From Candidatus Latescibacterota bacterium (GTDB lineage Bacteria; Latescibacterota; UBA2968): a DNA stretch of 64,000 nucleotides. The position numbers were made by a program, and so were the translations under genes. The notes under the pieces were generated by a model. The model was not told the origin of the DNA. It searched no databases and saw only the letters and a program-made list of their open reading frames with translations. Every line of letters starts with the position of its first letter. Position 1 is the first letter of the stretch. The stretch covers positions 2,848,001-2,912,000 of the forward strand of contig OZ242195.1 in assembly GCA_965205975.1 (NCBI GenBank). The letters are read 5' to 3'. This document shows, in pieces, positions 18,543-62,656 of the stretch.

Positions 18543-18858
18543 GAATTATTGCGCCCATGCCTTTGCCGTCTCTCCCCCCGAAAGTGCCATCACCAAAGAA
18601 GACGAAATTCTCGCCGAAAAAGCCGCCGCCTTCATCGTAGGGCGCAAACTCACAGCACCAGCCATCATGCTACTTGAAACCGGGCGCCCCTTTAACTATA
18701 TTGGCAGCCAACTTTTGACTTTTTTGTCGCCCTTCGTATCTATCATTTTTTCCTCAACAGCTGAGTTTGATCGCTTCACGCGCTTTCTGGAAAAACGGGA
18801 AAGCATTCCCTGCCTCATTCGCCACATTGAAACCCTGGAAAACAAAAACCATGGATAA
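18505..18858 (+). CDS. Hypothetical protein
   Basis: MSSKNTSLL...; coupled to the GlmL-like gene. Confidence 0.7.
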   Translation: MSSKNTSLLTRLKNYCAHAFAVSPPESAITKEDEILAEKAAAFIVGRKLTAPAIMLLETGRPFNYIGSQLLTFLSPFVSIIFSSTAEFDRFTRFLEKRESIPCLIRHIETLENKNHG

Positions 18859-20638
18859 ACTCGATGTCATCATCGCTACCGATTGCGGCAGCACCACCAC
18901 CAAAGCCATCCTGATTGAAAAAAAGGACGATGTCTATCGCCAGACCTATCGAGGCGAAGCACCAACCACAGTTGAAGCTCCCTACGAGGACGTCACGCGC
19001 GGCGTACTCAACGCCATTCAAGAAGTCGAAGAACTCTCCGGCAGACAAATTCTCGACGGCGAAACCATCATCACACCCGCAGAAGACCATCGCGGAGTTG
19101 ACATCTACATTTCCACCAGCAGCGCAGGCGGCGGCCTGCAAATGATGGTCGGCGGTGTCATTCAGGCCATGACCGGCGAAAGCGCACAGCGTTGCGCGCT
19201 CGGCGCAGGTGCAATTGTCATGGACATTCTCGCATCCAACGATGGTCGGCAGCCCCACGAAAAAATCGAACGCATTCGCCAGTTGCGCCCCGATATGGTG
19301 CTCCTTTCGGGCGGCACAGATGGCGGTACTATTTCGCACGTTGTCGAACTGGCCGAATTTATTTCGGCAGCCGATCCCAAACCGCGATTTGGATCTGGAT
19401 ATCAACTGCCCGTCATTTTCGCTGGGAACAAAGATGCTGCACAGGAAATTGAACGCACCCTGGGCGACAAAACAGCCCTCACCGTCACGGAAAATATCCG
19501 CCCCACGCTCGAAGCGGAAAACCTCGGACCTGCTCGCCATGTGATCCACGACCTATTTCTCGAACACGTCATGGCGCAAGCACCTGGCTATCGAAAACTC
19601 ATTTCCTGGACAGGTGCGCCCATCATGCCCACGCCCGGCGCAGTTGGCCTCATGATGCAAACCGTATCCAAACAACAGAATATCAATGTCGTGGGCGTTG
19701 ATATAGGTGGTGCTACCACCGATGTATTCAGCGTCTTCGAAGATATCTTCAACCGCACGGTATCTGCCAACCTCGGCATGTCCTACAGCGTGTCCAACGT
19801 ACTCGCCGAAGCGGGCCTCGACGATGTCATGCGCTGGGTACCTTTCAAAATCGACGAAGCCGACCTGCGGGACCGCATCAAAAACAAAATGATCCGCCCC
19901 ACCACAATTCCGCAAATGCTCGAAGAACTTCAGATCGAACAGGCCATTGCCCGCGAAGCCCTGCGTCTGGCCTTTGTCCAGCACCGCGCACTGGCGGTGG
20001 GGCTCAAAGGCGTACAGGCAGAGCGCACCCTGTCCGATGTATTCGACCAATCCGCAGGCGGCGAAAGCCTCATCAAAATGCGCGACCTCGATCTTCTTGT
20101 CGGAAGCGGCGGCGTTTTATCTCACGCCCCACGTCGAATGCAAACAGCCGCCATGCTCATCGACGCCTTCCAGCCCGAAGGCATCACGCGCCTCGCTGTT
20201 GACAGCATCTTTATGATGCCACACCTCGGCGTGCTCTCATCGGTCAACGAAATCGCCGCCACCCAGGTTTTTGAACGCGATTGCCTCATTTACCTCGGCA
20301 CGTGTATCGCACCCATCGTCCAGGGCAAACAGAGCGCACCTTGTGCGCAATACGAAATCGGCCTTCCTGACGGAACCCAATCGGGCACACTCAATATAGG
20401 CGATCTTCTGCACTTCTCCCTCGAAGCCGATCAAGAAGCACATCTCACCTTACAACCCGAGCACAACACAGACGCAGGTGCCGGACCGGGACGCGAACTG
20501 AACACCACAGTCAAAGGAGGCACCGCCGGGCTAATCCTCGACGGACGCGGTCGTCCCATTATATTTGCCGAAAATCAATCCGAACGCACCGATCAAATAA
20601 GTCGGTGGAGCGAGACCCTCGACCTCTATCCTCGGTAA
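18851..20638 (+). CDS. GlmL (glutamate mutase L)-family actin-like ATPase
   Basis: DCGSTTTK, SSAGGGL, LLSGGTDGG, MPTPGAV, DIGGATTDVFS, RTVSANLGM. Confidence 0.88.
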   Translation: MDKLDVIIATDCGSTTTKAILIEKKDDVYRQTYRGEAPTTVEAPYEDVTRGVLNAIQEVEELSGRQILDGETIITPAEDHRGVDIYISTSSAGGGLQMMVGGVIQAMTGESAQRCALGAGAIVMDILASNDGRQPHEKIERIRQLRPDMVLLSGGTDGGTISHVVELAEFISAADPKPRFGSGYQLPVIFAGNKDAAQEIERTLGDKTALTVTENIRPTLEAENLGPARHVIHDLFLEHVMAQAPGYRKLISWTGAPIMPTPGAVGLMMQTVSKQQNINVVGVDIGGATTDVFSVFEDIFNRTVSANLGMSYSVSNVLAEAGLDDVMRWVPFKIDEADLRDRIKNKMIRPTTIPQMLEELQIEQAIAREALRLAFVQHRALAVGLKGVQAERTLSDVFDQSAGGESLIKMRDLDLLVGSGGVLSHAPRRMQTAAMLIDAFQPEGITRLAVDSIFMMPHLGVLSSVNEIAATQVFERDCLIYLGTCIAPIVQGKQSAPCAQYEIGLPDGTQSGTLNIGDLLHFSLEADQEAHLTLQPEHNTDAGAGPGRELNTTVKGGTAGLILDGRGRPIIFAENQSERTDQISRWSETLDLYPR

Positions 20639-20730
20639 GAGAAAGAACAAGGCTATGATTTAATTTATTTTTCTTGTAAAGTACTCCTCGCATTGTATAT
20701 TCCGTTATCCGTAACCTCAGGTATTACTCT

Positions 20731-21849
20731 ATGGCACACGCATACACACCCGGTCTTCGCGTTACCCCACAGACCCTTCTTCAACGCCAGCGCCAACTTC
20801 CCCTCAAAGGCGAGGTCGTCGTATCACAAGGCGATAGCGTGACGCGCGATCAGGTCGTTGCCCACACGCACCTACCCGGCAACGTCACCACCCTCAACCT
20901 GGTCAACATCTTGAGCTGTACGCCAGAAGAACTGCCCAATTACATGCTCAAAAGTGAAGGCGACCCCGTCGAAGCCAACGAACCCATTGCCGAAACCCGC
21001 CCCTTCATAAAATGGTTTAAAACCACCGTTAAAGCACCTATCAGTGGCACCCTCGAAAACATCTCCAAAATCACCGGGCAGGTCATCTTTCGCGCGCCCC
21101 CGCGCCCCGTTCAGGTACAGGCATACATCGATGGAAACGTGATCGAAATCCTGCCCGAAGAAGGTGTCATTGTCGAAACCACAGGTGCATTTGTGCAGGG
21201 CATCTTTGGCATAGGCGGAGAAACCTGGGGACCTCTACACGTCATCTCCGAGGAGCCAGATCAAATTTTAACCCCCGATCAAATCGACGACTCGTGCGCG
21301 GGTAAAATCCTCGTGGGCGGCAACTTGCTCACCCTTGATGTAATCAACAAAGCGCGGGAAATCGACGCCGTTGGCATCATTGGCGGCGGCATCCGCGATT
21401 CCGATTTGCGCGACATGCTCGGCTACGACCTCGGCGTAGCCATCACCGGCACCGAGAATATCGGCCTCACCGTCATTGTCACCGAAGGCTTTGGCTCCAT
21501 CGCAATGGCGCGCAAAACCTTTGACATACTGAGCGAAAACAACGGCAAAGAGGCCTCGATCTCTGGTGCCACCCAGATCCGCGCCGGAGTTTTGCGTCCC
21601 GAAATCATCATTCCAGAATCCCGCATCCACGAACAAGCCGAAGAATCCGATCATCCGGGCCTCATCGAAGGGGCACTCTTGCGCGTAATTCGCGCACCCC
21701 ATTTTGGTCAGGTGGGAAAAGTCACGGCCCTACCACCCGAACTGCAAACAGTCGAATCCGAAACCCATGTGCGCGTACTCGAAGTAGAATTTGACAATAG
21801 TGACCGCGCCACTGTCCCGCGCGCCAACGTCGAACTCATCCAGGAGTAA
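20731..21849 (+). CDS. Hypothetical protein with barrel-sandwich-hybrid-like repeats and C-terminal SH3/KOW-like segment
   Basis: GEVVVSQGDSV, KSEGDPV, VKAPISG, VRVIRAPHFG-like tail. Confidence 0.8.
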   Translation: MAHAYTPGLRVTPQTLLQRQRQLPLKGEVVVSQGDSVTRDQVVAHTHLPGNVTTLNLVNILSCTPEELPNYMLKSEGDPVEANEPIAETRPFIKWFKTTVKAPISGTLENISKITGQVIFRAPPRPVQVQAYIDGNVIEILPEEGVIVETTGAFVQGIFGIGGETWGPLHVISEEPDQILTPDQIDDSCAGKILVGGNLLTLDVINKAREIDAVGIIGGGIRDSDLRDMLGYDLGVAITGTENIGLTVIVTEGFGSIAMARKTFDILSENNGKEASISGATQIRAGVLRPEIIIPESRIHEQAEESDHPGLIEGALLRVIRAPHFGQVGKVTALPPELQTVESETHVRVLEVEFDNSDRATVPRANVELIQE

Positions 21850-21872
21850 ACGACTCCATCGGGAGATTGCGT

Positions 21873-23081
21873 ATGAGATATTTTTTAATCTGCATCACAC
21901 TCGTGCTTTGCACAGCACAGGTGCATGCACAACAACCCACCGGTGTCAAAGCCGAAGACACCCCCAACGACTCGGGAGGCAGCATCACCGTCACCTGGGA
22001 CTACCCAGAATCCTATGAGAAAATCGAACAAATCAGATACGTAATTTACGTTAGCGAATCTGAAAATGGACCTTTTCATTCTGCCAAGATCAACGCGGGA
22101 GATTTGCAATCCAGCGATCCAGCCACCTTTGGGCATGGCGAAGAAACATTCCACAAGTTTTTTGCCAAAATCTCCGTATATGTTGATCCTGCTGACCCAT
22201 CTAAAAGAATCGCCATAGAAAATGGTAAAACCTATTATGTACAGGTCACGGCCCACCTCCCATCTGGCGGATCATTTCCCTCTGCAATCGCGAGCGCAGA
22301 AGCTTATCAAAATTTTTTCAACCAGGCCAAAACCAATAACTTCGTTATCGGCACAATCTTCTCTCTCATCATTTTGATCAGCATTTTCCTCGCCCAAAAA
22401 CGCGAACTCTTCATCCGGCGCATCGCCGGTCTCGAAGCACTCGACGAAGCCCTCGGTCGCGCCACTGAAATGGGCAAACCCGTGCTCTTTGCACACGGAT
22501 TGGCGTCTATGGGCAGCGTATCGACCATTGCAGCAATCAATGTGCTTTCCCGTGTGGCCAATCGCACTGCCGAATTTAACACCGAATTGCGCGTAGCCAA
22601 CAATGACCCCGTCGTCATGGCCGTGAGTCAAGAGGTCGTCAAAGAATCCTATCTCAACGCCGGTCGTCCCGATGCCTACTCAGAAGACTCGGTCTTTATG
22701 GTCGCCACCGAGCAATTCAGCTATGCCGCAGCCCTCGACGGCATGATGGTGCGCGATAGACCTGCCACCAATATCATGATGGGCTACTTCTTTGCCGAAT
22801 CTCTGCTTTTAGCAGAAACGGGTGCTTCCATAGGTGCGATCCAGATCGCAGGTACTGACGCTTATACGCAGTTGCCCTTTTTCATCACTACCTGTGACTA
22901 TACGCTCATGGGCGAAGAACTCTATGCTGCAAGCGCGTATCTTTCCCGAGAACCCAAATTGCTGGGCAGCCTTAAAGGGCAGGACATCGGTAAAGCAGTG
23001 CTCTTGATCGCCATGATTTTGGGCACACTTCTGGCGACTCTTGAAATTCAAACACTCACGCATATTTTTACCGCATATTAA
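21873..23081 (+). CDS. DUF6754-like membrane protein with signal peptide and FN3-like N-terminal domain
   Basis: Signal peptide, DTPNDSGGSITVTW, TM, IRRIAGL..QIAGT..QLPFF..CDY..GEELYAASAY. Confidence 0.8.
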   Translation: MRYFLICITLVLCTAQVHAQQPTGVKAEDTPNDSGGSITVTWDYPESYEKIEQIRYVIYVSESENGPFHSAKINAGDLQSSDPATFGHGEETFHKFFAKISVYVDPADPSKRIAIENGKTYYVQVTAHLPSGGSFPSAIASAEAYQNFFNQAKTNNFVIGTIFSLIILISIFLAQKRELFIRRIAGLEALDEALGRATEMGKPVLFAHGLASMGSVSTIAAINVLSRVANRTAEFNTELRVANNDPVVMAVSQEVVKESYLNAGRPDAYSEDSVFMVATEQFSYAAALDGMMVRDRPATNIMMGYFFAESLLLAETGASIGAIQIAGTDAYTQLPFFITTCDYTLMGEELYAASAYLSREPKLLGSLKGQDIGKAVLLIAMILGTLLATLEIQTLTHIFTAY

Positions 23082-23096
23082 GCAGGGGATTCTTTC

Positions 23097-23756
23097 ATGC
23101 TTTTTTTAAGACGCACACTACCGCTAATCATCGCCTTTGTTCTGGGTATGATTGGCATTCTCGTTTTCTATATCCCACACAGCGGTGCCCAGGCTCTTGA
23201 ACAAGAATTGACAAAATGGGATCGCATTGTCGCTGCTTTTGCTATGGTGTTGGGCATCTACAGCTTGATGCGCTTGCACTGGAGCCGCGTGCGGCGGCAA
23301 CATGCAGGATGGGCATATAGCTTTCTGGTTTTTGTCGGTTTCACGGTCATGTTTATTTTTTCCATCTACAATGATGGACAAGGTCCTTTCAACTCCCAGG
23401 TCATTGATTCAGGTCCTTTTGTGTGGATGTTTGATAATGTGCAGGTACCAGCCGATGCCACCATGTTCTCCATCCTCGCGTTTTTCATTGCATCTGCAGC
23501 CTATCGCACCTTTCGCGCACGCACACCCGAAGCGGCAATTCTGCTCGTATCCGCCATTATCGTGATGATCGGTCGTGTACCCATTGGCGCGTCAATTTAT
23601 CAGGGGCTTCCCGAAATTGCCCAATGGATGATGGATGTGCCAAATCTGGCAGCCAAACGCGGCATCTTGCTCGGCGTCAGTCTTGGCATTGTTGCAACGT
23701 CATTGCGCATCATCTTTGGCATTGAACGCTCTTATCTCGGCGGAGGTGAAGAATGA
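23097..23756 (+). CDS. Multi-pass membrane protein
   Basis: About six hydrophobic segments; ATMFSILAFFIASAAYRTFRAR. Confidence 0.85.
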   Translation: MLFLRRTLPLIIAFVLGMIGILVFYIPHSGAQALEQELTKWDRIVAAFAMVLGIYSLMRLHWSRVRRQHAGWAYSFLVFVGFTVMFIFSIYNDGQGPFNSQVIDSGPFVWMFDNVQVPADATMFSILAFFIASAAYRTFRARTPEAAILLVSAIIVMIGRVPIGASIYQGLPEIAQWMMDVPNLAAKRGILLGVSLGIVATSLRIIFGIERSYLGGGEE

Positions 23757-24583
23757 AAGAATTATTGCTCAATATCGACCGCCGAATCATCTTTGTTTTT
23801 GTCGCGCTCGGCGTCATCATTCCCTCGTTGGCTACCTTGCGCTTGCCTATTCCCGTTACCAAAGATGTGAAAGCGATTTACGACACTATCGAAGAAGTCG
23901 GAGCAAAAAACGGCACTGTACTCATCTCCTTTGACTACGGCCCTGGCTCCATGCCCGAAGTACAGCCCATGGCCCTTGCTGTTTTGCGCCACTGTTTCAA
24001 GCGCAACGTCAAAGTAGTGGGCATGTGCCTTTGGCCCCAGGCGGTGGGGCTGGCCCAACAAGCCCTCGATAAAGCCTCACAAGAACTGGAGACCGAATAC
24101 GGCAGCGACTATGTCTTTCTCGGATTTAAAACCGGATTCCAGTCCCTGGTTATCAACATGGGCCACGATTTTCACGGCACTTTCCCACAAGATTTGCATG
24201 GCAACAACACAACTGAATTACCTGTCACCCAAAATATAAAGGGCTTGGCGAACTTCGACTATGTGATCTGCCTGGCAGCGGGCAACACACCAGATGGTAT
24301 CTGGATACCCTACGGACAAGAACGCTACAAATTCAAATTTGGCATTGGCTGTACCGCTGTGATGGCACCCGATCAATATCCCTATTTGCAATCGGGCCAA
24401 ATGAACGGCATGATGGGAGGATTAGCCGGTGCCGCCGAATATGAAACCCTGATTGAAACATCGGACAAAGCCACCGCAGGCATGGGTGCACAGTCCTTTG
24501 TCCATCTCATCATCATCGCCTTCATCATCCTGGGCAATGTAATGTACTTCCTCTATGGTCGGCAGAAAGGTGGTGCCCAGTGA
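23753..24583 (+). CDS. Membrane-anchored hypothetical protein
   Basis: N- and C-terminal TM; DYGPG, YPYLQSGQ, GGLAGAAEYE; ATGA overlap with previous gene. Confidence 0.85.
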   Translation: MKELLLNIDRRIIFVFVALGVIIPSLATLRLPIPVTKDVKAIYDTIEEVGAKNGTVLISFDYGPGSMPEVQPMALAVLRHCFKRNVKVVGMCLWPQAVGLAQQALDKASQELETEYGSDYVFLGFKTGFQSLVINMGHDFHGTFPQDLHGNNTTELPVTQNIKGLANFDYVICLAAGNTPDGIWIPYGQERYKFKFGIGCTAVMAPDQYPYLQSGQMNGMMGGLAGAAEYETLIETSDKATAGMGAQSFVHLIIIAFIILGNVMYFLYGRQKGGAQ

Positions 24584-51811: not shown

Positions 51812-52207
51812 ATGTTGATCTCGATTGACCACCACAATGGCATACCCGTTTTTCGCCAGATCATCGACCAGGTGAAATTCCACGTCGTCAGCGGACTACT
51901 CGCGCCGGGAGACGAATTGCCCTCGACCCGCGCGTTATCGGGGCAACTGGGACTCAACCCAATGACAATAAGCAAAGCGTATAGCCTGTTGGAAGCAGAA
52001 GGATTGGTCGAGCGGCGGCGCGGGCGCCCCTTAACCGTAAAACCCTTACGAGATCAGACCGTACACGCCGAAAAACTGGCACAACTCAAACCACAACTCA
52101 CACAATTGGCAACAATGGTTCGGCAGCTGGGGGTTGATCGGGCGGAAGTCGTAGATCTTTTTCTCTCCATCTTAGATGCCCTGGAGGAACATAATGATGG
52201 CACCTGA
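51812..52207 (+). CDS. GntR-family regulator (YtrA subfamily)
   Basis: IPVFRQI..GDELPSTR.L..LNPMTISKAY..LE; short C-terminus. Confidence 0.92.
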   Translation: MLISIDHHNGIPVFRQIIDQVKFHVVSGLLAPGDELPSTRALSGQLGLNPMTISKAYSLLEAEGLVERRRGRPLTVKPLRDQTVHAEKLAQLKPQLTQLATMVRQLGVDRAEVVDLFLSILDALEEHNDGT

Positions 52208-53088
52208 CCAGACATCTGTATTTGAAGCCACATCACTGACCAAAAAATTCGGTGACACCTGTAGCGCTCAATTCCGTAACGCTCTCTCTTGGATCGCATC
52301 GCGTAATTGGATTGATCGGACGAAATGGCGGAGGCAAAACCACCTTAATCCAGCACATGATCGGCCTGTATTTGCCCACAGAGGGCACGTGTAAAACACT
52401 GGGACGCGCGTGCGATCAATTGGGAACAAACGAACTCTCGCGCATAGGCGTGGTGCATCAGGAAAACCGCTTTTTTGAATGGATGACCGTCAAACAGCAT
52501 CTGCGCTACGTGTCCTCATTTTACGAAATATGGGACCGCGACCTGGAAGCGCATCTGCTGCGCGAACTCGAACTGGAAACCTCCGCACGCGTGGGCAACC
52601 TGTCTTCGGGTAACATGCAAAAATTGGGAATCATACTGGCAGTATGTCATCATCCCGAGCTATTGATCTTAGATGAGCCAGTCAGCGGCCTGGACCCTAT
52701 CGCGAGAGAGACATTGTTGAAATTTCTAATGACACTCCTATCTGAAGACGAAAACACAATCGTGATCTCCTCCCACATTCTGCGAGACATCGAAAAAATA
52801 GTAGATTGGGTCGTATGCCTCGACGAAGGTGTGGTCAAAGCCGACAAATCGCTGGACGATCTGCACCAGACCTACGCAAAGTGGACAGTCACAGGAAACA
52901 ACCTGCCCCAGCAATTTTCTGAACCTTATATCCTGTCGCAAACAGTGAACGGAGTACAGGCACAATTGATCGTCAATCAGACACTGGGCAATGCAGATCA
53001 ATTCAAGCGGACTTATCAGGCTAATATCACCAGTCAGTCCCTGAACCTCGACCAACTATTTCCCATCCTGATTCGGGAGGGCGCGTAA
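52194..53088 (+). CDS. ABC transporter ATP-binding protein with +1 frameshift near 52260
   Basis: MMAPDQTSVFEATSLTKKFGDT in one frame continues as VALNSV..GRNGGGKTT..LSSG..LILDEP..SSH in another. Confidence 0.85.
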
Positions 53089-54560
53089 TGGGTATTTTAT
53101 CATTTTTCACATTTCTGCGAAGCCCTGTTTACATTGTTAGCATATTTATTGTAGGCAGCTTCTTTTTCTTTCACGTCTCGTCGTCTTCCCACATACATCG
53201 GCTCTCTGTATTCTTTTTATTTTTATTTATTGAATTTTGTGGCGGGACTATTGGCAGTATTGTAGGAGAGAACCAGCACCGGATGCTCACCTGGACCCTG
53301 CCGCATTTTCGCAAGCGTCTGATGATCTGGTCAATAATTGTCGGACTATTTTCTGTGGTAGCGTGGACGATTATACTGACTTATGCCTCCCTCAATGCGT
53401 CCTGGTCAACGATTTTGCTCCTGAATATGTGCCTCTATTGTTTGGGATTTGCCTTTTTAGGGGGTTGGAGTTTAGATACTAATCGTCCCGGATTGATTTA
53501 CAAGTACCGAATCCCCCTCATATTCATGGGACTGGCACCAGCCTATTTGTGGCAAGAGGTACTCGCTTTTGGAGAACAACAGAAGTTGGGGTTGGCTCTC
53601 ATCGCATTCGCCATCGCAATTGGAACTCATTATTTTGCCTTTAATCAGACAGCTTTTCGCAGGAAGCCATTTTCTTTTTTGGTTGGGTCAATCCACTCGG
53701 GTTCTGATCCTCAAACCCGGGAGATTTGGAAACAGAATGCAATGATGATGCGAAAGACGAGTACCGGGGTATGGCATCTCGATCACATCGGTACAGGCAT
53801 CTTCAATTGGCTGCGTGCCGGTCAGTACGAAAATTATGGTCAGGGTGGGTGGAAATGGCCTATTTCCGCGTTTAGCGCAGCATTGGCAATGGTATTCTTT
53901 TTTCTGAGCATGGAGACGCGTTTCTTCGGGTTGTTGTGGCGGTCTCCTTACGATTTTGAGACCGTCTTGAAAATGATTTATCACATGATGTTTTATTTTC
54001 ATCAACTGGATCCCAAGATCGCCATTAATATATCGCTTTCAGTGTTCTTCGGCATTTGTATGTTTATGCTTTTTCCTTCTTGTTTCTTAAAAAGAGGATA
54101 TGTCTATCCGCTTTCTCGCACCCGGCGGATGTGGATTCAGTATAGCGGTTTGCTGGTACAAAATATTTCTTTTATTACCGCATCTATTCTGGTATTGGGC
54201 GTTCTGGGCATCCTATCTGGGGCAAAGATCGGGTTTGTGTCTGAAGGAGACGTTTCTCTGGGAATACTCCGCGTTTTTGGATGGGTAGTGGTTCTGATAC
54301 CGGTATTGCAGTGGTTGCAATTCAAATATGACCTGTATGGATTTCAAAGAACGCGGGGACAAAGATGGGGCATAGCTCTTGGGTTACTGATCATGATTTT
54401 AAGTATTGGAATCGGTGGTTTCACCAGTCTAATGCGCGTCTGGTATCCCGATTTGATGCTGATCTATGAAGTGCCAATCCTTCTTGTCTGCTTTATTCTT
54501 CTGCAATGGTTCCTATTGTCTCGTCTCAAACGGTATTACGCCACACAGGATCTAATTTAG
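53088..54560 (+). CDS. Polytopic membrane protein (probable ABC permease)
   Basis: About 12 hydrophobic segments; TAATG overlap with the ATPase. Confidence 0.8.
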   Translation: MGILSFFTFLRSPVYIVSIFIVGSFFFFHVSSSSHIHRLSVFFLFLFIEFCGGTIGSIVGENQHRMLTWTLPHFRKRLMIWSIIVGLFSVVAWTIILTYASLNASWSTILLLNMCLYCLGFAFLGGWSLDTNRPGLIYKYRIPLIFMGLAPAYLWQEVLAFGEQQKLGLALIAFAIAIGTHYFAFNQTAFRRKPFSFLVGSIHSGSDPQTREIWKQNAMMMRKTSTGVWHLDHIGTGIFNWLRAGQYENYGQGGWKWPISAFSAALAMVFFFLSMETRFFGLLWRSPYDFETVLKMIYHMMFYFHQLDPKIAINISLSVFFGICMFMLFPSCFLKRGYVYPLSRTRRMWIQYSGLLVQNISFITASILVLGVLGILSGAKIGFVSEGDVSLGILRVFGWVVVLIPVLQWLQFKYDLYGFQRTRGQRWGIALGLLIMILSIGIGGFTSLMRVWYPDLMLIYEVPILLVCFILLQWFLLSRLKRYYATQDLI

Positions 54561-54781
54561 TAACCGAGAGTTTTTAAGTCGCAGAACAAAAAGCATAATT
54601 TTTGTATAATTATGCATATATGCATTTGTTTTCTCATAGATTTTTTAATTTTTTATACACGTTAATAGCATTTAATAAATTGCAGCGTGTCGCCAGGGTT
54701 ACGACAATAAGAGACACGAAGTATTGGCGTATCCATTCTTTCGCACACGTATGCGTTCCTATACCTGCGAAAATAACGTGT

Positions 54782-57700
54782 ATGTTTGAAACCGGAACGA
54801 TTCTCGACAACAAATACCAAATCCAGACACATCTCGGAACCGGGGGCATGGGGGAAGTGTATCGGGTGTTGGACCTGGAGCAAGGCCAGGACTGCGCGCT
54901 CAAAATTTTGAATACCATGGTGGATAAGAAGGCGGTACATCGCCGCTTTCGCAGAGAATTTCAAGTATTGAACCGATTCCAGCACCCGCGCCTGATCCGC
55001 ACATACACCTGGGGCTTTGCCGAAGATCGCCCCTATTTTACAATGGAATATTTGCCCGGAAAGACATTGGAAAAAATAATTACCGATCATGCATATTTGG
55101 GACAATTCCGGGCGTCTCACTTTTTCGATTTAATACAACAACTTGCCGAAGGATTGGCTTATGTCCACGCGCAGGGTGCGGTGCATCGCGATCTCAAACC
55201 ATCCAATATTATGGTTTTGGAAACGGAAGAGGGGATTGAGACCACGATCCTGGACCTGGGGCTGGCGAAATTTAGGCACCTACATAGCGTTTCCATTACG
55301 CAGACAGGCGCAACGATTGGCACGGCAGAATATATGTCGCCAGAGCAGGGTAAGGGTTTGTGGGTGGACCATCGGTCAGATCTGTACTCATTGGGTGTGG
55401 TTTTATACGAGATGCTCACAGACACACCACCTTTTTCTGGACAAAATCCAATATCTGTTATTATGAAGCATATTCGAGAATCCCCGCCACCAATGGGCGA
55501 AGTCAATATCGAGATTTCTGAACAGACGCAACAAATTGTGTTGAAATTGCTGGCAAAAGAGCCTGTTGATCGTTATCAGTCGGCAGAGGAATTGTTGCAG
55601 ACCTTAAATGATGTGGCACCATCGAAGCTTGTGCTATCCGATGACGAGCAGCGCGATGTGCATAGAAAAGTTATGCGCCCGCAATTTGTCGGGCGTGAAT
55701 CCGAAATGAAGATGTTGCGCACGATGTTACGGGATGTACAGACTGGTGAGCAGCGCGTGGTTCTGATCTCCGGTGAGTCTGGTGTGGGAAAAACGAGACT
55801 TATTGAGGAACTATTGGGCGATGCGCTAATCCATGACTTTCTGTGTCTGAAAGGCGCGAGTCAGGAAGAAGGTGGACAAATATACGGTGCGTTGATCAGC
55901 GCTTTTCAAGGGAAGGTGGATTTGGTGACAGAGTTACCCGACCCTGCAGAATCGGACAAGTTTTCTGTTATGGAGCGCTGGTTGCAGTTACTAAAAAATC
56001 TGCGACAGCAACAGCCCATTGTGTTGTGTTTGGAAGATATTCAATGGCTTGATGAATTGACCCTGGAATTTTTGCAGTATATATTGCGCGACCCAGAACC
56101 GTGCCCGTTTTTGTTGTGCTTGACCTGTCAATGGTCTAATCTGGAACCGCTTTCAGAGGAAATTGGAAATTTTATACACAGCAATACATTTGCAGTGGCA
56201 ACCCGGATTCAGTTGAAGAATCTACCGCGAGAAGAAGTGGGGTATTTAGCGGCGTCGATGTTGGGCGAGCGATCTATACCGCGAGATGCCTTACAAACCC
56301 TGTTCAGAGAAACGGGCGGGCAACCCCTATTTGTCGTAGAGGCGGTGCGGACACTGGTAAATGCCGATGTGGTTCGACAGAATGTGTCCGGCGATTGGCA
56401 ATGGGGAGAATTTCCCGAAACATTATTATCCGATGATATTTCAGAGATTCTGCACAGGCGCATAGCAACCCTACCTGCTATGCAACAGAGGGTACTGGAA
56501 TATGCCTGTGTTTTTCTGAATGATTTTTCTTTCGACTTATTGGCAGCGGTTTGGCGCGGTGATGAGTTGGAACTGTTAGATGTGCTGGATGACCTAATTG
56601 CAGAAGGACTTTTGACAGCTTGTGGAGAAGATGAAGATCAATATCGATTTTCGCAGGAGTTGTGTCGGCGTACAATTTACGGCCGCCTGCAAGATGTGCG
56701 GCGGCGTCTGTTACATCGAGAAATTGGCAATGCTCTGGAAGAGACGGGTGATGCAGAAGAACTGACAGAAGAATTAGCGGATCATTTCGCGGCGGCAGAA
56801 GAACGAGATAAAGCAATAAAATATATGCGTCTATCAGGCAAAAAAGCATTGGAAAAACACGCTTATCGCCAGGCAAGGATGCGGTTTGAGGCCGTGCGAG
56901 ACTGGGCAGCGGATGACGCTTTTGAATCACAAGCAGATGCCATCGATTTTTTGTGCGATTATGCAAACGTTTTACGCTGTTGTAGTCAGCACAATAACGC
57001 ACTGGAACTTTTAGACGAGGCACAGGCGTTATTGCCCGATGATCGGAACGATTTGAAGGCGCGTATTTTGTGGAATGAAGGCATTATTCACAGCGTACTG
57101 CAACATGGGGGAATAGCAGAAAAATATATGCTGGAGGCATTGCGGCTTTATCGGGAGATGGATGATCTCGACGGAGAAATTCAGGCGTTAAGGAGTTTGG
57201 CTTATTTGTGCGATGTATCTGGGCGACACAAAGAAGCTATTGCATATATGCGTCGAGAAATGGCGAAATATGCTATGCTGGGAGACACCCAAAACAAGGC
57301 TATTGTACGAGTGCGAGAAGGTATGGTTGCATTGGTGGCATTTCGATTTGAGACAGCCAAAGTGCATTTGGAAGCTACTGTAAGAATATCTCAACAACCT
57401 GGACTTGAACACCATCGCATTGGAGCACTCAATTTACTTCAAAGAGTTTATTTTTTTCGGAGTGATCTCAACCGTGCAGAAGCCGTTTGCCACGAAGCCA
57501 TTGGCGAGGGGCGAAAACGAGGCGATGCGTACTGGGAAGCAGTAAATTTTCTCTATTTGGGAGAATTGGCTCTGGAAGGCGGTGATTTTTCAGAAGCATT
57601 GGAATATGCCAAGATTTCGGCAGAGCAATTTTTGCAAACACCGCGAAAAGATTATGTCTATCGCGCTTATGCGATTGCGGCAACGGCTGCTGCAAAAATG

Positions 57701-59602
57701 GGAGATACAGAAATAGCGCTCGAATGGGCAGAAAAAGCCAGTGAAGGTGTACAGCAAACGTCGGGTATGTACACGGGCATATTGCCCCTGGTTTATTGCG
57801 GTATTGGTGTTGCTCTGACTCAAGCAGGACGGATAGCCGAGGCTGAAGAGGCTTTTGAGCAGGCTATTAAATGCCGAAGAGAATCCAAAGGTGATCACTG
57901 GGCACGCGCATTGTTGATGGCAGGGGAGTTTTATCTCCAGCGCGATGATATGACAAGAGCTACGGAGTATCTCGAAGCGGCAAAACAGGCATTTGGAGAA
58001 ATGGAAATGTCCTATTTTTTGGAGAAAACACAGGTGCTATTAAATCAATTATCTCACGACAAAGATGGTCACGACAGGGAGGCCGCACCCAGTTCTGAAA
58101 ATTCAGTCGATACGTTGTCTGTTGATCGCTTGCGCTTGCTTTACCATGTGAGTCGGGAATTGACAACAGAGCGCGATGTCAAAGTGTTATTGGATCGGAC
58201 TTTGGGTAATTTATTGGCTGTTTATTCAGCAGAGCGGGTGCTTATTGCGATTAAAAATGAGACCCAAAAAGGCTTTGCGGTCGATGCGGTACGTTACCAC
58301 AATGTAGAAGCAGATGATGCGGAAGCACTGAGTCGGGGTATTATTCGTAGAGTTATTGAAACAAATGAACCCATTTTGAGCATTGATGCCCAGACAGACG
58401 ACAGGCTCAATCAATATCAAAGCGTGATAGACTACAATATCCGGTCTGTATTGTGTGTGCCTGTATTCCATCTGAACGAAGGTGTGATGGGTGCGCTATA
58501 TGTGGATCATCGCGGCATAGATAACGCATTTTCTGAAGCAGATCAGACGTTTTTACAGGCATTTGCGAATCTGGTGGGTGTAGCACTGGTCAATGCGAGG
58601 ATGTACGAACAATTGGAAGAGAAAGCGCGATATTTGCAGCAAGAGGTCGAAAGACGGCACCAGCTTGGCGATCTGTTTGGGCAAAGTGATGCGATGCAGA
58701 CGATCTACTATCTTATCGAACGCGCTGCAAAGAGTGATATTCCCGTGCTTGTGCAAGGCGAAACAGGTACGGGCAAAGAATTGGCTGCGCGTGCCATACA
58801 CTACAATAGCACGCGCAAAGACCAGCCGTTTTTGTCGCAAAATTGCGCTGCATTATCACCAGAGTTGTTACAGAGCGAGTTGTTTGGGCACAAAAAAGGT
58901 GCGTTTACTGGCGCGAATGAAGATCATAAGGGGATTTTTGAGGCGGCCAATGAGGGTACGGTTTTTTTAGATGAAATCGCCGATGCCCCGCCACAGTTGC
59001 AAAGGAGTTTGTTGCGGGTGTTGCAAGAGGGTGAGGTGCGGCGCGTGGGAGAAACAGAGGATCGCACAGTGGATGTACGCATTATTGCAGCGACCAATCG
59101 AGACTTAAAAAAAGAAGTTGAGAAAGGCTCTTTCCGCGAAGATTTGTATTATCGGTTGCATGGGATTCAGATCGATATGCCGCCTTTGCGAGAACGCATT
59201 GAAGATGTGCCGTTATTGGCTGAACATCTGCTTATTCGGGCAAAAGAAGGTACAAACAAGTCGGTTGGGGGGCTAACAGTAGGTGCAATAAAGACCCTTG
59301 TAAGTTACAACTGGCCTGGCAATGTGCGCGAGTTGGAGAATAAAATTCGGCGTGCGGTTGCATTGGCAGAAGAAGAGGGTGATATTACGCCCGATTTGTT
59401 TTCAGAAGCTGTCGAGCACGCGGGGTCAGGTACCTCTGTTGAATACCAGGGGCATTTACAAGATCGTGTTCGGGAATATGAGAAACGGTTGATTCGAGAC
59501 ACGCTCGAGAAATGCGAGGGCAATATTACGCATACGGCTAAAGAATTAGGGATGACGCGCGCTGGCCTACAAAAAAAGATCAATCGTTTGGGGTTGAGAT
59601 AG
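54782..59602 (+). CDS. Ser/Thr kinase - AAA/STAND-like NTPase - TPR - GAF - sigma54 activator - Fis HTH
   Basis: GTGGMG, HRDLKPSN, DLG, YMSPEQ; GESGVGKT, LEDIQW; helical repeats; SVLCVP/GALYVD; GETGTGKE, GAFTGA, WPGNVREL; GNITHTAKELG. Confidence 0.93.
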   Translation: MFETGTILDNKYQIQTHLGTGGMGEVYRVLDLEQGQDCALKILNTMVDKKAVHRRFRREFQVLNRFQHPRLIRTYTWGFAEDRPYFTMEYLPGKTLEKIITDHAYLGQFRASHFFDLIQQLAEGLAYVHAQGAVHRDLKPSNIMVLETEEGIETTILDLGLAKFRHLHSVSITQTGATIGTAEYMSPEQGKGLWVDHRSDLYSLGVVLYEMLTDTPPFSGQNPISVIMKHIRESPPPMGEVNIEISEQTQQIVLKLLAKEPVDRYQSAEELLQTLNDVAPSKLVLSDDEQRDVHRKVMRPQFVGRESEMKMLRTMLRDVQTGEQRVVLISGESGVGKTRLIEELLGDALIHDFLCLKGASQEEGGQIYGALISAFQGKVDLVTELPDPAESDKFSVMERWLQLLKNLRQQQPIVLCLEDIQWLDELTLEFLQYILRDPEPCPFLLCLTCQWSNLEPLSEEIGNFIHSNTFAVATRIQLKNLPREEVGYLAASMLGERSIPRDALQTLFRETGGQPLFVVEAVRTLVNADVVRQNVSGDWQWGEFPETLLSDDISEILHRRIATLPAMQQRVLEYACVFLNDFSFDLLAAVWRGDELELLDVLDDLIAEGLLTACGEDEDQYRFSQELCRRTIYGRLQDVRRRLLHREIGNALEETGDAEELTEELADHFAAAEERDKAIKYMRLSGKKALEKHAYRQARMRFEAVRDWAADDAFESQADAIDFLCDYANVLRCCSQHNNALELLDEAQALLPDDRNDLKARILWNEGIIHSVLQHGGIAEKYMLEALRLYREMDDLDGEIQALRSLAYLCDVSGRHKEAIAYMRREMAKYAMLGDTQNKAIVRVREGMVALVAFRFETAKVHLEATVRISQQPGLEHHRIGALNLLQRVYFFRSDLNRAEAVCHEAIGEGRKRGDAYWEAVNFLYLGELALEGGDFSEALEYAKISAEQFLQTPRKDYVYRAYAIAATAAAKMGDTEIALEWAEKASEGVQQTSGMYTGILPLVYCGIGVALTQAGRIAEAEEAFEQAIKCRRESKGDHWARALLMAGEFYLQRDDMTRATEYLEAAKQAFGEMEMSYFLEKTQVLLNQLSHDKDGHDREAAPSSENSVDTLSVDRLRLLYHVSRELTTERDVKVLLDRTLGNLLAVYSAERVLIAIKNETQKGFAVDAVRYHNVEADDAEALSRGIIRRVIETNEPILSIDAQTDDRLNQYQSVIDYNIRSVLCVPVFHLNEGVMGALYVDHRGIDNAFSEADQTFLQAFANLVGVALVNARMYEQLEEKARYLQQEVERRHQLGDLFGQSDAMQTIYYLIERAAKSDIPVLVQGETGTGKELAARAIHYNSTRKDQPFLSQNCAALSPELLQSELFGHKKGAFTGANEDHKGIFEAANEGTVFLDEIADAPPQLQRSLLRVLQEGEVRRVGETEDRTVDVRIIAATNRDLKKEVEKGSFREDLYYRLHGIQIDMPPLRERIEDVPLLAEHLLIRAKEGTNKSVGGLTVGAIKTLVSYNWPGNVRELENKIRRAVALAEEEGDITPDLFSEAVEHAGSGTSVEYQGHLQDRVREYEKRLIRDTLEKCEGNITHTAKELGMTRAGLQKKINRLGLR

Positions 59603-59613
59603 ACGTTGAACAG

Positions 59614-59736
59614 GTGCATCCAACTGTATGCAGTAGTGCATCCAATTGTATGCGTCTATATATCCTTATATAATTCAGATAGTTATTCTGATTTTCTTTA
59701 AATAAGCAATTTATAGGTGCATCCAACTGTATGCAC
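59614..59736. promoter_or_regulatory. Three near-identical dyad sites (candidate bEBP enhancer)
   Basis: gtgcatccaaYtgtatgc at 59614, 59636 and 59717. Confidence 0.8.
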
Positions 59737-59845
59737 TTGCGCCAGAATCTCGTAGATATAGCACAAATAATTCTCAAATTTTATCTCGTTGTTTTTCAAG
59801 CATTTGAACACATTCAAGTGCTTTTTTTTGTGCTGAGACGATTTT

Positions 59846-59860
59846 GGGCACGGATCTTGC
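59846..59860 (+). promoter_or_regulatory. Sigma54 -24/-12 promoter
   Basis: GGGCACGGATCTTGC, about 55 bp upstream of the ATG at 59916. Confidence 0.8.
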
Positions 59861-59915
59861 GATATGAAAAGGGCAAACAGTTATGGCACAGGTTTTTCCC
59901 TTAAAGGAGGATAAC

Positions 59916-60095
59916 ATGGCAACACGACGCAAGTTGAATTTGATCAATGGAGCGATAGATCAAGAAGGTAGCATTCTTATGTATCAAACTGTGAATAGTT
60001 TTGAAATTGGCTGCGCCCCTTATTCTTTTACCGTTCCCCTCGTGCCTTTCCCTGATAATGATGACGATTGGGACGATTTTGATCAGTCTGAGTGA
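59916..60095 (+). CDS. Putative RiPP precursor peptide (59 aa)
   Basis: RBS aaaggagg; MATRRKLNLINGAIDQEGSILMYQTVNSFEIGCAPYSFTVPLVPFPDNDDDWDDFDQSE; directly upstream of the rSAM gene. Confidence 0.75.
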   Translation: MATRRKLNLINGAIDQEGSILMYQTVNSFEIGCAPYSFTVPLVPFPDNDDDWDDFDQSE

Positions 60096-60124
60096 ATCAT
60101 CATCTATTCCAAGGAGTACGTGCT

Positions 60125-61555
60125 ATGCTATGCATTAAAAAATGCGACATGCATCTTTTTCAAACTGAAGAGCAAAATCAGCCGATTGTATATCAGATTA
60201 AAACCGGTCTGTTTTTTAAACTGGATACCCTTTTTCAGTCAATTTTAGCGTGTTGCGAAGGCTTGTCTGCTTCACAGGTTGTCCAGACGTTGGCCGATCA
60301 ATACGAAGCAGAGGAAATTGCCGAGGCCATCGAGGAACTGTCTCAGGTGGGCTTGATTTCGGATGGTGCTCTACCTGTGGTAGCCAATGTGCCGACAGCA
60401 GAAGGGGTGGCAGCCTGTGGGGTTTCGCAGACAGACCGTTTGCAGGTGTCCTTGCACGTTTCGCATACGTGCAATATTCAATGTGCTTATTGCTTTGCAC
60501 ACGGTGGGGATTACGGCGGTAAGGCCATGCTGATGCAACCCGATGTTGCCGAGCAATCCATACGATGGATCATCACTGAGGCTCAGGTGTTCGGACGGTG
60601 CCAGATTGATTTTTTTGGCGGGGAGCCGCTTCTGAACTTTCCGCTTCTACTCAAGCTCGTACCATTTGCCAAATCCCTGGGCGCGCGGTTGGGTGTGCAG
60701 GTTGGTTTTGGTATTGTGACCAATGGCACGTTGTTGACCGACGAGATGAAGCAGTTTTTGGTTGATGAAAAGTTTCAGATTAAGGTCAGCCTGGATGGTG
60801 GGCGTAAGACACAAGATCGCATTCGCAAGTTTCACAATGGTTCTGGGACTTATGATGTTGTGGCAAAGAATGTGCAGAAACTGACTGCTGAGGTGCCTGA
60901 GCGCGTATATCTGCAAGCCATTATGACAGCGTATGATATGGACGAGGATCAGATTGCCGATGCGTTGCGTTCCCTCGGTACTGATAACGCGCTTGTTGGT
61001 CCCGCTGTTGTCTCCCCCAATGCACCCTACGCTATTCGAGAAGAACACCTACCCGTTTTGAAGCAACAGATTTACAGGCGGAGTAGGCGTGCGCTTGAAG
61101 CTATTTTAAGTGGTGAAGAGAGTGAGGAGTTTGATCCGCGGATTCAAAAATTGCTGACGCGCCAAAAATCGTGTCACGGATGTCTCGGTGGTAAGCAGTA
61201 TTTGGCGATTGCAGCAGATGGGTCGATTTATTTTTGCTCGAGTTTGGCCGATGCGCCCGAGTTTAAGATGGGTGATGTGTTTGCGGGTATCGACCGCGAA
61301 AAGCAGCAGCATTTTGACGTGCAGTTCAATGTGAATAATCGGCCTGAGTGCAAGACGTGCTGGGCGCGCAACCTGTGTGGTGGGGGGTGTCTTTGGGATG
61401 CGCGGACGACGACGGGTGATCCGATGTATCCAAACCCTATTGCTTGTGAGCAGACGCGCTATCGCTATGAACTGGCGATGGAGATGTGTATGGAAATTTC
61501 AGAAGCCGATGCGTCTTTGTTGCAACGACGTTATGATCTGGAAGTGGCTTCATAA
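60125..61555 (+). CDS. Radical SAM/SPASM peptide maturase with N-terminal RRE-like domain (CteB/PapB/QhpD-like)
   Basis: CNIQCAYC, FFGGEPLL, VTNGTLL, SLDG; SPASM C..G..IYFC..CKTCWARNLCGGGC..C; RBS aaggag. Confidence 0.92.
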   Translation: MLCIKKCDMHLFQTEEQNQPIVYQIKTGLFFKLDTLFQSILACCEGLSASQVVQTLADQYEAEEIAEAIEELSQVGLISDGALPVVANVPTAEGVAACGVSQTDRLQVSLHVSHTCNIQCAYCFAHGGDYGGKAMLMQPDVAEQSIRWIITEAQVFGRCQIDFFGGEPLLNFPLLLKLVPFAKSLGARLGVQVGFGIVTNGTLLTDEMKQFLVDEKFQIKVSLDGGRKTQDRIRKFHNGSGTYDVVAKNVQKLTAEVPERVYLQAIMTAYDMDEDQIADALRSLGTDNALVGPAVVSPNAPYAIREEHLPVLKQQIYRRSRRALEAILSGEESEEFDPRIQKLLTRQKSCHGCLGGKQYLAIAADGSIYFCSSLADAPEFKMGDVFAGIDREKQQHFDVQFNVNNRPECKTCWARNLCGGGCLWDARTTTGDPMYPNPIACEQTRYRYELAMEMCMEISEADASLLQRRYDLEVAS

Positions 61556-61665: not shown

Positions 61666-62656
61666 ATGGGAGAAATATATCAATCAAAAATTCGGCCTCG
61701 ATAAATGGCCACTCATTGGACAGCATTCCTCACTCTTAGACGTGCAAAAGCGCGCGTACCGCGTGGCAAATAGCGAATTGCCCGTCAACATCAGTGGAGA
61801 AACTGGCACGGGTAAGGAACTGCTCGCCCGTTATGTTCACGGCATTAGCCACCGCAACAGGGGACCATTTGTAACTGTTGACTGTGGCATACTCTCTTCT
61901 GAAATGTCGCGCAGCGAGTTATTTGGACACGTTCGAGGTGCTTTTACCGGCGCCAGCGAAACGCGCACCGGACTGGTTGAATCTGCCCGGGGCGGTACAC
62001 TATTCCTCGATGAAGTGGGCGAATTGCCAGCCAACCTTCAGTTGCAATTGCTACGCCTGGTACAGGAACAGGAATTTCGCCGCGTAGGCGAAGCATCCAT
62101 GCGCCGGTCCGACGTGCGCCTGATCACTGCGACACACTGTAACTTGCGAAAAATGGTGCGAAAAGGGACTTTCCGAGAAGATCTCTATTACCGCTTAACT
62201 GTCGTACCTCTACATTTGCCACCCTTGCGGAAGCGACTGAGCGACTTGCCTCTTTTAATCACGCATTTTTGCAAAAGTATGAAAGAATACAATCGCGCAT
62301 TTTCCCCCGAAGTAATTCAAAGGATGTCGCGTTATGCATGGCCTGGCAATGTTCGGGAACTACAACACGAAGTTGCCCGATTGATGGTCATGGCCGAAGG
62401 TAAAATTATCCGAGTATCCGACCTGCGCCCCCGCATTCGAGGGGCAAACGCCGAGGTTGATGTCTTTGACCTCCCGTTTAAGGAAGCCAGACAACTGGCG
62501 AACAGCCGGTTTATGCGAGAGTATCTTCACAGAGCTTTGCAGAGAACACAGGGCAATGTAACCCAAGCAGCGCAACAATGCGGCATTGGCCGACAGTATT
62601 TCCAGTTGCGTATGTCCGAATACGGTCTAAAGTCGGCATCTTACAAACAAAAATAA
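61666..62656 (+). CDS. Sigma54-dependent activator lacking a sensory domain; start apparently frameshifted by an extra G
   Basis: LIGQHSS.., GETGTGKE, GAFTGA, FLDEVGEL, WPGNVREL, GNVTQAA HTH; the ATG at 61666 is one base out of frame. Confidence 0.85.

Follow-up and report, generated by a model that had tools for sequence, protein, structure and literature searches.

The window analysed here is a 64,000-nt stretch of contig OZ242195.1, from the Candidatus Latescibacterota bacterium assembly GCA_965205975.1. Coordinates are window positions unless a locus is named. The window encodes a three-gene cassette for a peptide that is made by the ribosome and then modified post-translationally (RiPP), made up of a regulator, a precursor peptide and a radical S-adenosylmethionine (rSAM) maturase, and this copy is the minimal form. 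Judged by its sequence, the cassette belongs to a real, undescribed rSAM-RiPP family of Latescibacterota that behaves like a thioether-forming system. Our overall explanation, to which we give a probability of about 0.6, is a sigma54-driven cassette making one Cys-thioether ring, probably to the residue seven positions after the core Cys (Cys+7).

The precursor gene (59916 to 60095, forward strand) encodes 59 aa. Its ATG is preceded at 5 nt by AAGGAGG, and the maturase gene follows at 60125 to 61555 on the same strand. A short open reading frame (ORF) with a strong ribosome-binding site directly upstream of an rSAM gene was what an earlier, sequence-only reading had described, and it is borne out. 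The peptide contains a leader motif (K6-G12), a core Cys (Cys33), a hypervariable loop (34-39), a V40-P46 segment and an acidic tail (47-59). The single Cys, core and tail of that reading are all present in the window copy. The maturase is 476 aa long and has RiPP recognition element (RRE), radical SAM and SPASM domains. It encodes the CxxxCxxC motif (C116/C120/C123) and SPASM Cys residues C353, C371, C409, C412, C418, C422 and C441. The proposed SPASM domain was confirmed (PF13186, 22.2 bits against a cutoff of 21.5), and the proposed RRE-like N terminus has a weak PqqD/RRE match (18.5 bits against a cutoff of 23.4). The sequence-only reading was right to join peptide and maturase, but it left outside the 1,605-aa upstream regulator, which is part of the unit.

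The peptide and the enzyme are almost certainly a real precursor-maturase pair. The enzyme was matched at E 1e-70 in 26 of 168 phylum genomes; one match fell outside the clade in the tree, which leaves 25/168. The precursor profile, built from 24 of the counted peptides, matched 23/168 genomes. Its copy number equalled that of the enzyme in 22 of these 23. The profile missed two enzyme-bearing genomes, one at a contig edge and one with a frameshifted peptide. Five near-complete genomes of the genus lack peptide, enzyme and regulator alike, and the genome studied here has three paralogous regulator-peptide-enzyme cassettes. The relatives are labelled Candidatus Latescibacterota, with a few Gemmatimonadota. 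When the loci were collected and the cores aligned, the homologous rSAM enzymes did carry a conserved upstream peptide. A short precursor gene is co-located and co-conserved with an RRE-bearing rSAM enzyme, and this supports the earlier proposal of an undescribed precursor with a cognate RRE-rSAM/SPASM enzyme. No Pfam or NCBIfam family matched the precursor. One precursor gene, at locus L043 (about 10330-10565, reverse strand), is frameshifted just before the core Cys and may be an assembly error or a pseudogene.

The genus set comprised 33 distinct precursors; a 34th locus escaped the pattern. The K-L-x-L-(I/V)-N-G leader is near invariant. The core Cys and a Pro at Cys+8 are present in 33/33. 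Val occupies Cys+7 in 32 precursors, and the remaining one has Val at +6. Each position of V(+7)-P(+8)-x-x-P-F-P is kept in 32 or 33 of the 33, and Cys+1 to +6 vary freely. The distance from leader to Cys varies, and the distance from Cys to V-P is fixed. The leader gave a pooled ratio of nonsynonymous to synonymous polymorphism (pN/pS) of 0.36, the loop 1.01, the V-P motif 0.16 and the rSAM enzyme 0.13. The pairs compared are non-independent and partly saturated, and the values show relaxed or diversifying change in the loop, short of proven positive selection.

Outside the genus, six sister-family precursors read C-x-W-P-x-F-x-(V/I/L)-L-P-P-P and have no acidic tail. Cys+7 is V, I or L at all six of these loci and F, F, Y and P at four distant loci, whose precursors have L-S-C and little else in common. 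In a representative search, 15 in-frame peptides had V, I, L or T at Cys+7. Three long non-peptide matches, two of them repeat proteins, were excluded before counting. The family is defined by the leader word and one Cys, not by the acidic tail or aromatic residues. The acidic tail of the sequence-only reading holds for the window peptide but fails as a family feature: it is genus-specific and occurs in 0/10 distant precursors from loci.

The leader resembles those of CteB-, PapA- and QhpC-type systems, as that reading had suggested. The words listed in the supplement of Precord et al. (PMC10288494) are KHIKILNG for thermocellin, LKQINV for PapA and KHLKPINH for QhpC. The 3,421 precursors in the spreadsheet of PMC10288494 contain none of seven motif words taken from precursors of the genus and the sister family. 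A PDB profile search with the precursor alignment gave one match at chance level (E 2.7). In the ESM Atlas the peptide matched only fibrinogen-like clusters (0.91), which share few features with it and were not accepted as kin.

On model scores the family sits in the CteB/QhpD/PapB branch and is not a member of SCIFF, freyrasin or quinohemoprotein amine dehydrogenase (QHNDH) systems. All NCBIfam scores of the maturase fell below cutoff: 261 bits for ScfB (TIGR03974, cutoff 425), 252 for QhpD (TIGR03906, cutoff 453), 249 for the nif11 maturase, 220 for PapB (NF047865, cutoff 340) and 112 for anaerobic sulfatase-maturing enzymes (anSME; TIGR03942, cutoff 349). CteB was the closest solved sequence (E 1e-57; anSME, 2e-16) and the closest fold (Foldseek rank 1, 28% identity in the fold match). 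The maturase model had a mean predicted local distance difference test (pLDDT) of 88. It has three strands and three helices ahead of the barrel, as in an RRE.

The predicted peptide-maturase complex scored 0.77 (best control, 0.02), with peptide residues 4-27 on the RRE strand. The mark used was reached by 116 of 157 solved pairs and 2 of 215 mismatched pairs. The runs agreed in at least 77% of contacts, with a partner pLDDT of at least 52. A similar CteA-CteB complex is already solved, so a passing score shows likeness.

The enzyme clade has 50 members, and identity falls from about 39% to about 32% at its edge. Seven SPASM Cys residues are invariant in it and align with the three-plus-four scheme of CteB. 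In FastTree, the only tree method used, the clade is monophyletic (15 rows, support 100) and sister to the degenerate partner enzymes of larger clusters (98). The tree does not fix its place among ScfB and QhpD, whose rows were labelled from 64 of the 101 outgroups.

The sequence-only reading had itself raised the possibility that the enzyme is an anSME, and it had correctly counted two sulfatases in the window (at 32086 and 34431, about 25 kb away). An anSME or other housekeeping enzyme beside an incidental ORF can practically be dismissed. The anSME score is far below cutoff, the fold is nearest to CteB, and the N terminus is RRE-like. The peptide pairs one-to-one with the enzyme, and its leader and V-P motif are under purifying selection. 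The residue after the Cys of auxiliary cluster I (AuxI) is Ser. In anSME this residue is an Asp that serves as a base.

The proposed mechanism runs as follows. The upstream STAND-type enhancer-binding protein would bind three palindromes and activate a sigma54 promoter, from which peptide and maturase would be co-transcribed. The maturase RRE is modelled to grip the K-L-x-L-I-N-G leader, as CteB does with CteA. Cys33 would then bind the three-Cys auxiliary cluster; the open site of CteB AuxI is described as binding the substrate Cys (PMC10177961). An adenosyl radical would abstract hydrogen from a residue downstream of Cys33 to give a single Cys-S-C thioether ring. The acceptor would most likely be the hydrophobic Cys+7 (Val40), with the ring enclosing the hypervariable six-residue loop. 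Processing and export would be supplied in trans.

A Cys thioether is likely, by analogy with the nearest enzymes. The Cys keeps a constant distance from V-P and a variable one from the leader, which points to an acceptor downstream of it. Given a thioether, we hold Cys+7 to be somewhat better than an even bet. The product may be ranthipeptide-like, as the sequence-only reading proposed, with the sulfur bonded to a beta or gamma carbon, but no Asp, Glu or Thr acceptor is conserved among the genus precursors. Whether the link would be to the alpha or to a side-chain carbon is about evenly balanced. CteB-type enzymes are described as attacking Thr at the gamma carbon (PMC10177961). Val is isosteric with that Thr, and one distant peptide has Thr at +7; both favour a non-alpha link. 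That +7 can be V, I, L, T, F or Y speaks for an alpha link, of the kind in SKF (Cys4-Met12).

The active site differs in part from that of CteB. The catalytic-proximity residues of CteB, as defined in PMC10288494, are F112, F152, T186, S210, H363 and Q364. The clade has F, F, T/A/V, S, S and S/A/T at these positions. Four of the six match CteB across the clade, and the third is V in the window copy. In the window enzyme S372-S373 occupy the positions of H363-Q364. A Ser followed by Ser, Ala or Thr replaces the His-Gln or His-Arg of known ranthisynthase relatives in 50/50 clade members. The residue after the AuxI Cys is His in 80 of 101 outgroup enzymes (7 not parsed), and no clade member has His there. 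The lost pair fits an acceptor without a polar side chain, where the acceptor-binding role of the pair is itself inferred. In three outgroup rSAM/SPASM enzymes (L112, L207 and L115) the AuxI Cys is followed by Tyr-Lys or Asp-Ser. Short peptides are encoded upstream of them, and they may represent other undescribed RiPP families.

Several observations weigh against this overall explanation. The last two proximity positions differ from CteB in every clade member, and with a Ser pair in place of His-Gln the chemistry may differ from that of CteB. An eighth Cys (C350) lies near AuxI in 32/50 members, including the window enzyme, and could close the open site; CteB too has a spare Cys nearby. The complex model names only residues 4-27, and the core is not placed confidently. 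A second, non-conserved Cys occurs in 7 of the 33 genus precursors (26 have one Cys). One peptide of the representative search lacks the core Cys, and four are out of frame, probably through indels. The regulator frame is broken in 4/23 genus loci, and no peptidase or exporter is conserved beside the cassette among the examined loci.

The same cassette could perform another chemistry, which we regard as unlikely. The Cys might be oxidised or removed (to a thioaldehyde, formylglycine or dehydro residue), or might only anchor the peptide on the auxiliary cluster while the radical acts on the conserved Val/Pro-rich segment, with glycosyltransferases decorating the product in larger clusters. The universal Ser372 and the possible saturation of AuxI by C350 point this way. 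So do the small amount of sequence shared after the Cys across the whole family and the second rSAM, GT4 and RRE-fused GT9 genes of the larger clusters. Set against this, the nearest sequence and fold are those of thioether formers, the anSME Asp is absent from the maturase, and the constant spacing of six residues agrees with a ring. A cyclophane- or streptide-type aromatic cross-link, C-C or C-S, on Tyr36, Phe38, Phe45 or Trp52 has a slim chance. Phe is found at Cys+12 in 32/33 genus precursors, Trp in 28/33 tails, and Trp at Cys+2 in all six sister-family precursors. The earlier suggestion of such a cross-link is nevertheless not supported. The groups have no aromatic position in common, and 8 of the 33 genus loops lack aromatic residues altogether. 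The Cys is the sole invariant core residue, and cyclophane-type models score far lower than ScfB (DynA 91, YhhB 85 and FxsB 71 bits). The single thioether ring is the reading we prefer.

Among known systems CteA/CteB (thermocellin; PDB 5WGG/5WHY) is the most similar. It shares the fused RRE, the seven SPASM Cys and a similar leader word, and gives the best NCBIfam, PDB sequence and fold matches. The window enzyme differs in the low TIGR03974 score, the separate clade outside the His-Gln clade, the Ser-Ser pair and the dedicated sigma54 activator upstream. Its precursor has one conserved Cys and SCIFF has six. The core was said to match neither the multi-Cys SCIFF nor the CX3D PapA pattern, and this is correct. 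PapA/PapB (freyrasin) has a similar leader word and appears to share the Cys scheme, but Asp or Glu is at Cys+4 in only 3/33 genus precursors. QhpC/QhpD, the gamma subunit of QHNDH and its maturase, gives the second-best score, and two distant precursors start with the QhpC leader word HLKPIN. Unlike the clade, outgroup enzymes that score as QhpD carry His-Arg behind the AuxI Cys. The leader word and look-alike motifs had suggested that the core descends from QhpC, an idea rejected for lack of profile homology (probability 0.4%). PF08992 (QhpC) was found in 0/168 phylum genomes, and the positive control was found.

One-ring or unnested sactipeptides (SKF Cys4-Met12; streptosactin/GggB) are alike in that a variable acceptor could be accounted for by an alpha link that does not depend on the side chain. 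The name ranthisynthase-like sactisynthases has been applied to GggB and QmpB (PMC10288494; PMC8172795). The sactipeptide models score poorly here, however (GggB 74 bits, SkfB E 7e-4), and there is no multi-Cys hairpin. The distant clusters resemble TrnC/TrnD (thuricin CD) in having two related rSAM enzymes, one apparently non-catalytic. TrnD is described as a still active rSAM (PMC12093266), whereas 6/7 partners here have no CxxxCxxC and the window cassette has no partner.

The regulator gene (54785 to 59602, forward strand) encodes Ser/Thr kinase, AAA_16 (STAND-type), TPR, GAF, sigma54 AAA and Fis helix-turn-helix (HTH) domains by Pfam. The 1,605 aa are counted from the ATG at 54785; the open frame begins at 54602. 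Residues 356-838 match TIGR03903 (TOMM kinase/cyclase) below cutoff. Downstream lie three copies of an imperfect 18-nt palindrome (59614-59631, 59636-59653 and 59717-59734), which are putative upstream activator sites. The region marked in the sequence-only reading begins with the first of them. A conserved, terminator-like hairpin with a T-run (59798 to 59830) precedes the sigma54 -24/-12 promoter box GGCACGGATCTTGC (59847 to 59860). All of these are on the forward strand. The hairpin region overlaps what we take to be a word like the integration host factor (IHF) site. The consensus words for sigma54, IHF and double-glycine sites are general knowledge.

The cassette is very probably regulated by this adjacent activator. 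The box pattern alone is weak evidence: the window has 2 matches against 0.45 expected, a number attained in 6 of 100 shuffles. A box is found no more than 130 nt from the peptide ATG in 33/33 genus loci, and a variant box in 6/6 sister-family loci. The sister-family pattern had no match in 5 more distant loci. A terminator scan found 2 sites against 2.6 expected and is no evidence by itself. The strict hairpin and T-run pattern occurs in 22/33 genus loci. In a 23-locus intergenic alignment the palindromes, the hairpin with its T-run and the box are all kept in position. An RpoN DNA-binding domain is above cutoff in this genome. A sigma54 domain is encoded upstream of the rSAM gene in 43/44 clade loci with upstream DNA, and all three tested domains are in 37/44. 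Two of the 46 clade loci were too short upstream for this count. The control gave 1 of 101 outgroup loci (47 of the 101 with at least 5.5 kb upstream). The locus has the sequence features of a sigma54-dependent operon, namely box, palindromes, enhancer-binding protein and RpoN, and the sigma54 control predicted earlier is supported by them.

Palindrome type tracks the recognition helix of the regulator HTH. RAGLQK goes with TGCA half-sites (10 loci), RVGLHK with TGTA (8), and RASLYR or RISLYR with TGTATCATTT (5). These groups are 3-4 paralogue lineages and not independent events; the match is consistent with insulation of the paralogues and is no test of co-evolution. Peptide loop types cross the regulator lineages (p 0.07 for association). 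One paralogous cassette's regulator (G000:C1 3,086,762-3,091,595, reverse strand) is split by a frameshift after the kinase domain.

The promoter module also occurs alone. Without the regulator it precedes FN3/He_PIG surface proteins, in this genome and relatives, and lipoprotein-like genes (20 of the matched sites were inspected). Two such copies in this genome, both on the reverse strand and before FN3/He_PIG repeat surface proteins, are at G000:C1 4,551,607-4,551,840 (E 3e-53) and 3,562,238-3,562,365 (E 4e-29; loci L237 and L236). Relatives have similar copies in front of large genes of Ig-repeat type or lipoprotein-like genes. At L260 (G014:C32) a full regulator and promoter drive DUF218 and TPR genes in place of the peptide, and L259 (G014:C49) retains a regulator remnant and promoter only. 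The regulator-promoter module is broader than the RiPP, since the regulator occurs without the enzyme, the promoter stands alone and the cargo can be unrelated. This weakens a strict autoinducer reading.

For the biological role, we lean only slightly towards a strain-variable signal or recognition peptide. A more specific version is tentative and doubtful: the TPR region of the activator would sense the modified peptide as a strain-specific signal, and the activator would then switch on its own cassette and also, in trans, surface-protein genes that have this promoter module. The loop pN/pS near 1, the loop types that cross paralogue lineages and the stand-alone promoters agree with it. Conservation within the regulator is lowest in the TPR stretch (0.74-0.75 identity), and in the genus regulator and enzyme share the same 16/21 genomes. 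However, one sister-family genus has the regulator in 14/15 genomes and the enzyme in 4/15. One genus regulator has unrelated cargo, genomes without the cassette have similar promoters behind ordinary response regulators, and no export route is conserved. Loop-TPR co-variation was not significant across 30 loci after correction for relatedness and multiple testing (partial r 0.12-0.15, family-wise p at least 0.33). A first signal for one window of the alignment (rho 0.25, 23 loci) did not reach significance under these controls, and peptide-TPR co-evolution was rejected.

A bolder combination appears quite improbable as a whole. The Ser-Ser clade would link an unactivated aliphatic residue through a single thioether or another radical bond, a chemistry so far unseen in the CteB/QhpD branch. 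In older clusters a pseudo-rSAM would assist it, and RRE-directed glycosylation would follow. The product would be a strain-specific signal, and the kinase-STAND-TPR sigma54 activator reading it would also control surface-protein genes of a bacterium associated with sponges.

Distant loci hold larger clusters. A second rSAM, 24-31% identical, is in 7/11 of them, and six of these seven have no CxxxCxxC. A GT4 gene is in seven of the 11. A GT9-type protein with an RRE-like N terminus is in two, encoded between both rSAM genes (L044:3773-6157 and L043:7545-8909). RRE-glycosyltransferase fusions have been noted for GT2 (PMC12710340). A methyltransferase-like gene (Pfam E 0.04) lies downstream of the enzyme in 12 genus loci and is found only in cassette-bearing genomes (14/168). 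The window cassette has no second rSAM, glycosyltransferase or methyltransferase-like gene.

As the sequence-only reading noted, no adjacent peptidase is present among the family matches of the cassette's window neighbours. An S8 peptidase near 4/35 loci and an Rce1-like cluster near 4/35 were rejected as dedicated proteases. A C39-ABC transporter beside one paralogue was rejected as a dedicated exporter; it is in 21/21 genus genomes and has its own double-glycine-like ORF. Behind a paralogous cassette, at L235 (G000:C1 2,800,000-2,814,000, reverse strand), a small ORF with a double-glycine-like leader and a Gly/Ala-rich core is accompanied by a methyltransferase-like gene, two GT4 genes and genes for an Rce1-like protease, a cNMP-C39-ABC transporter and HlyD. 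The locus looks like a second, separate peptide system.

Other genes flank the window cassette. A second sigma54 AAA-HTH protein without a sensor domain (61742-62656, forward strand) is downstream of the cassette in 10/10 loci of this paralogue lineage. Directly upstream of the regulator, on the same strand (51812-54560, forward), are a GntR regulator, an ABC ATPase and a 490-aa membrane protein without a family. The same membrane protein is encoded at 8 loci of this lineage and could be an exporter or mark a mere insertion site. Farther away (18767-24583, forward strand), a MutL-type gene (PF13941) is followed by a DUF6754 gene and by several others that lack a strong Pfam family.

A small part of the region is contained in nine RNA runs. 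Contigs of four runs (80% likeness) cover the rSAM gene in 4/4, and two of these four are labelled sponge metagenome. RNA-library contigs join the peptide and rSAM genes of relatives in three studies, which favours the overall explanation; against this, the contigs are unstranded and DNA carry-over is possible.

A full-text literature search, with subscription papers outside its scope, found no description of this family. Ranthipeptide and RRE calls by antiSMASH are given, without detail, for sponge Latescibacterota in PMC12993501. Through the cassette, at least one anonymous RiPP call in Latescibacterota genomes gains a name and an anatomy, and a RiPP is tied to a sigma54 activator that is giant and unusual. 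Peptide and maturase form a compact two-gene system for asking which active-site residues set the bond position in rSAM/SPASM enzymes. The family also offers a natural library of at least 33 precursors that vary only in a six-residue loop. If the enzyme has the tolerance that these sequences suggest, the library would suit macrocycle engineering.

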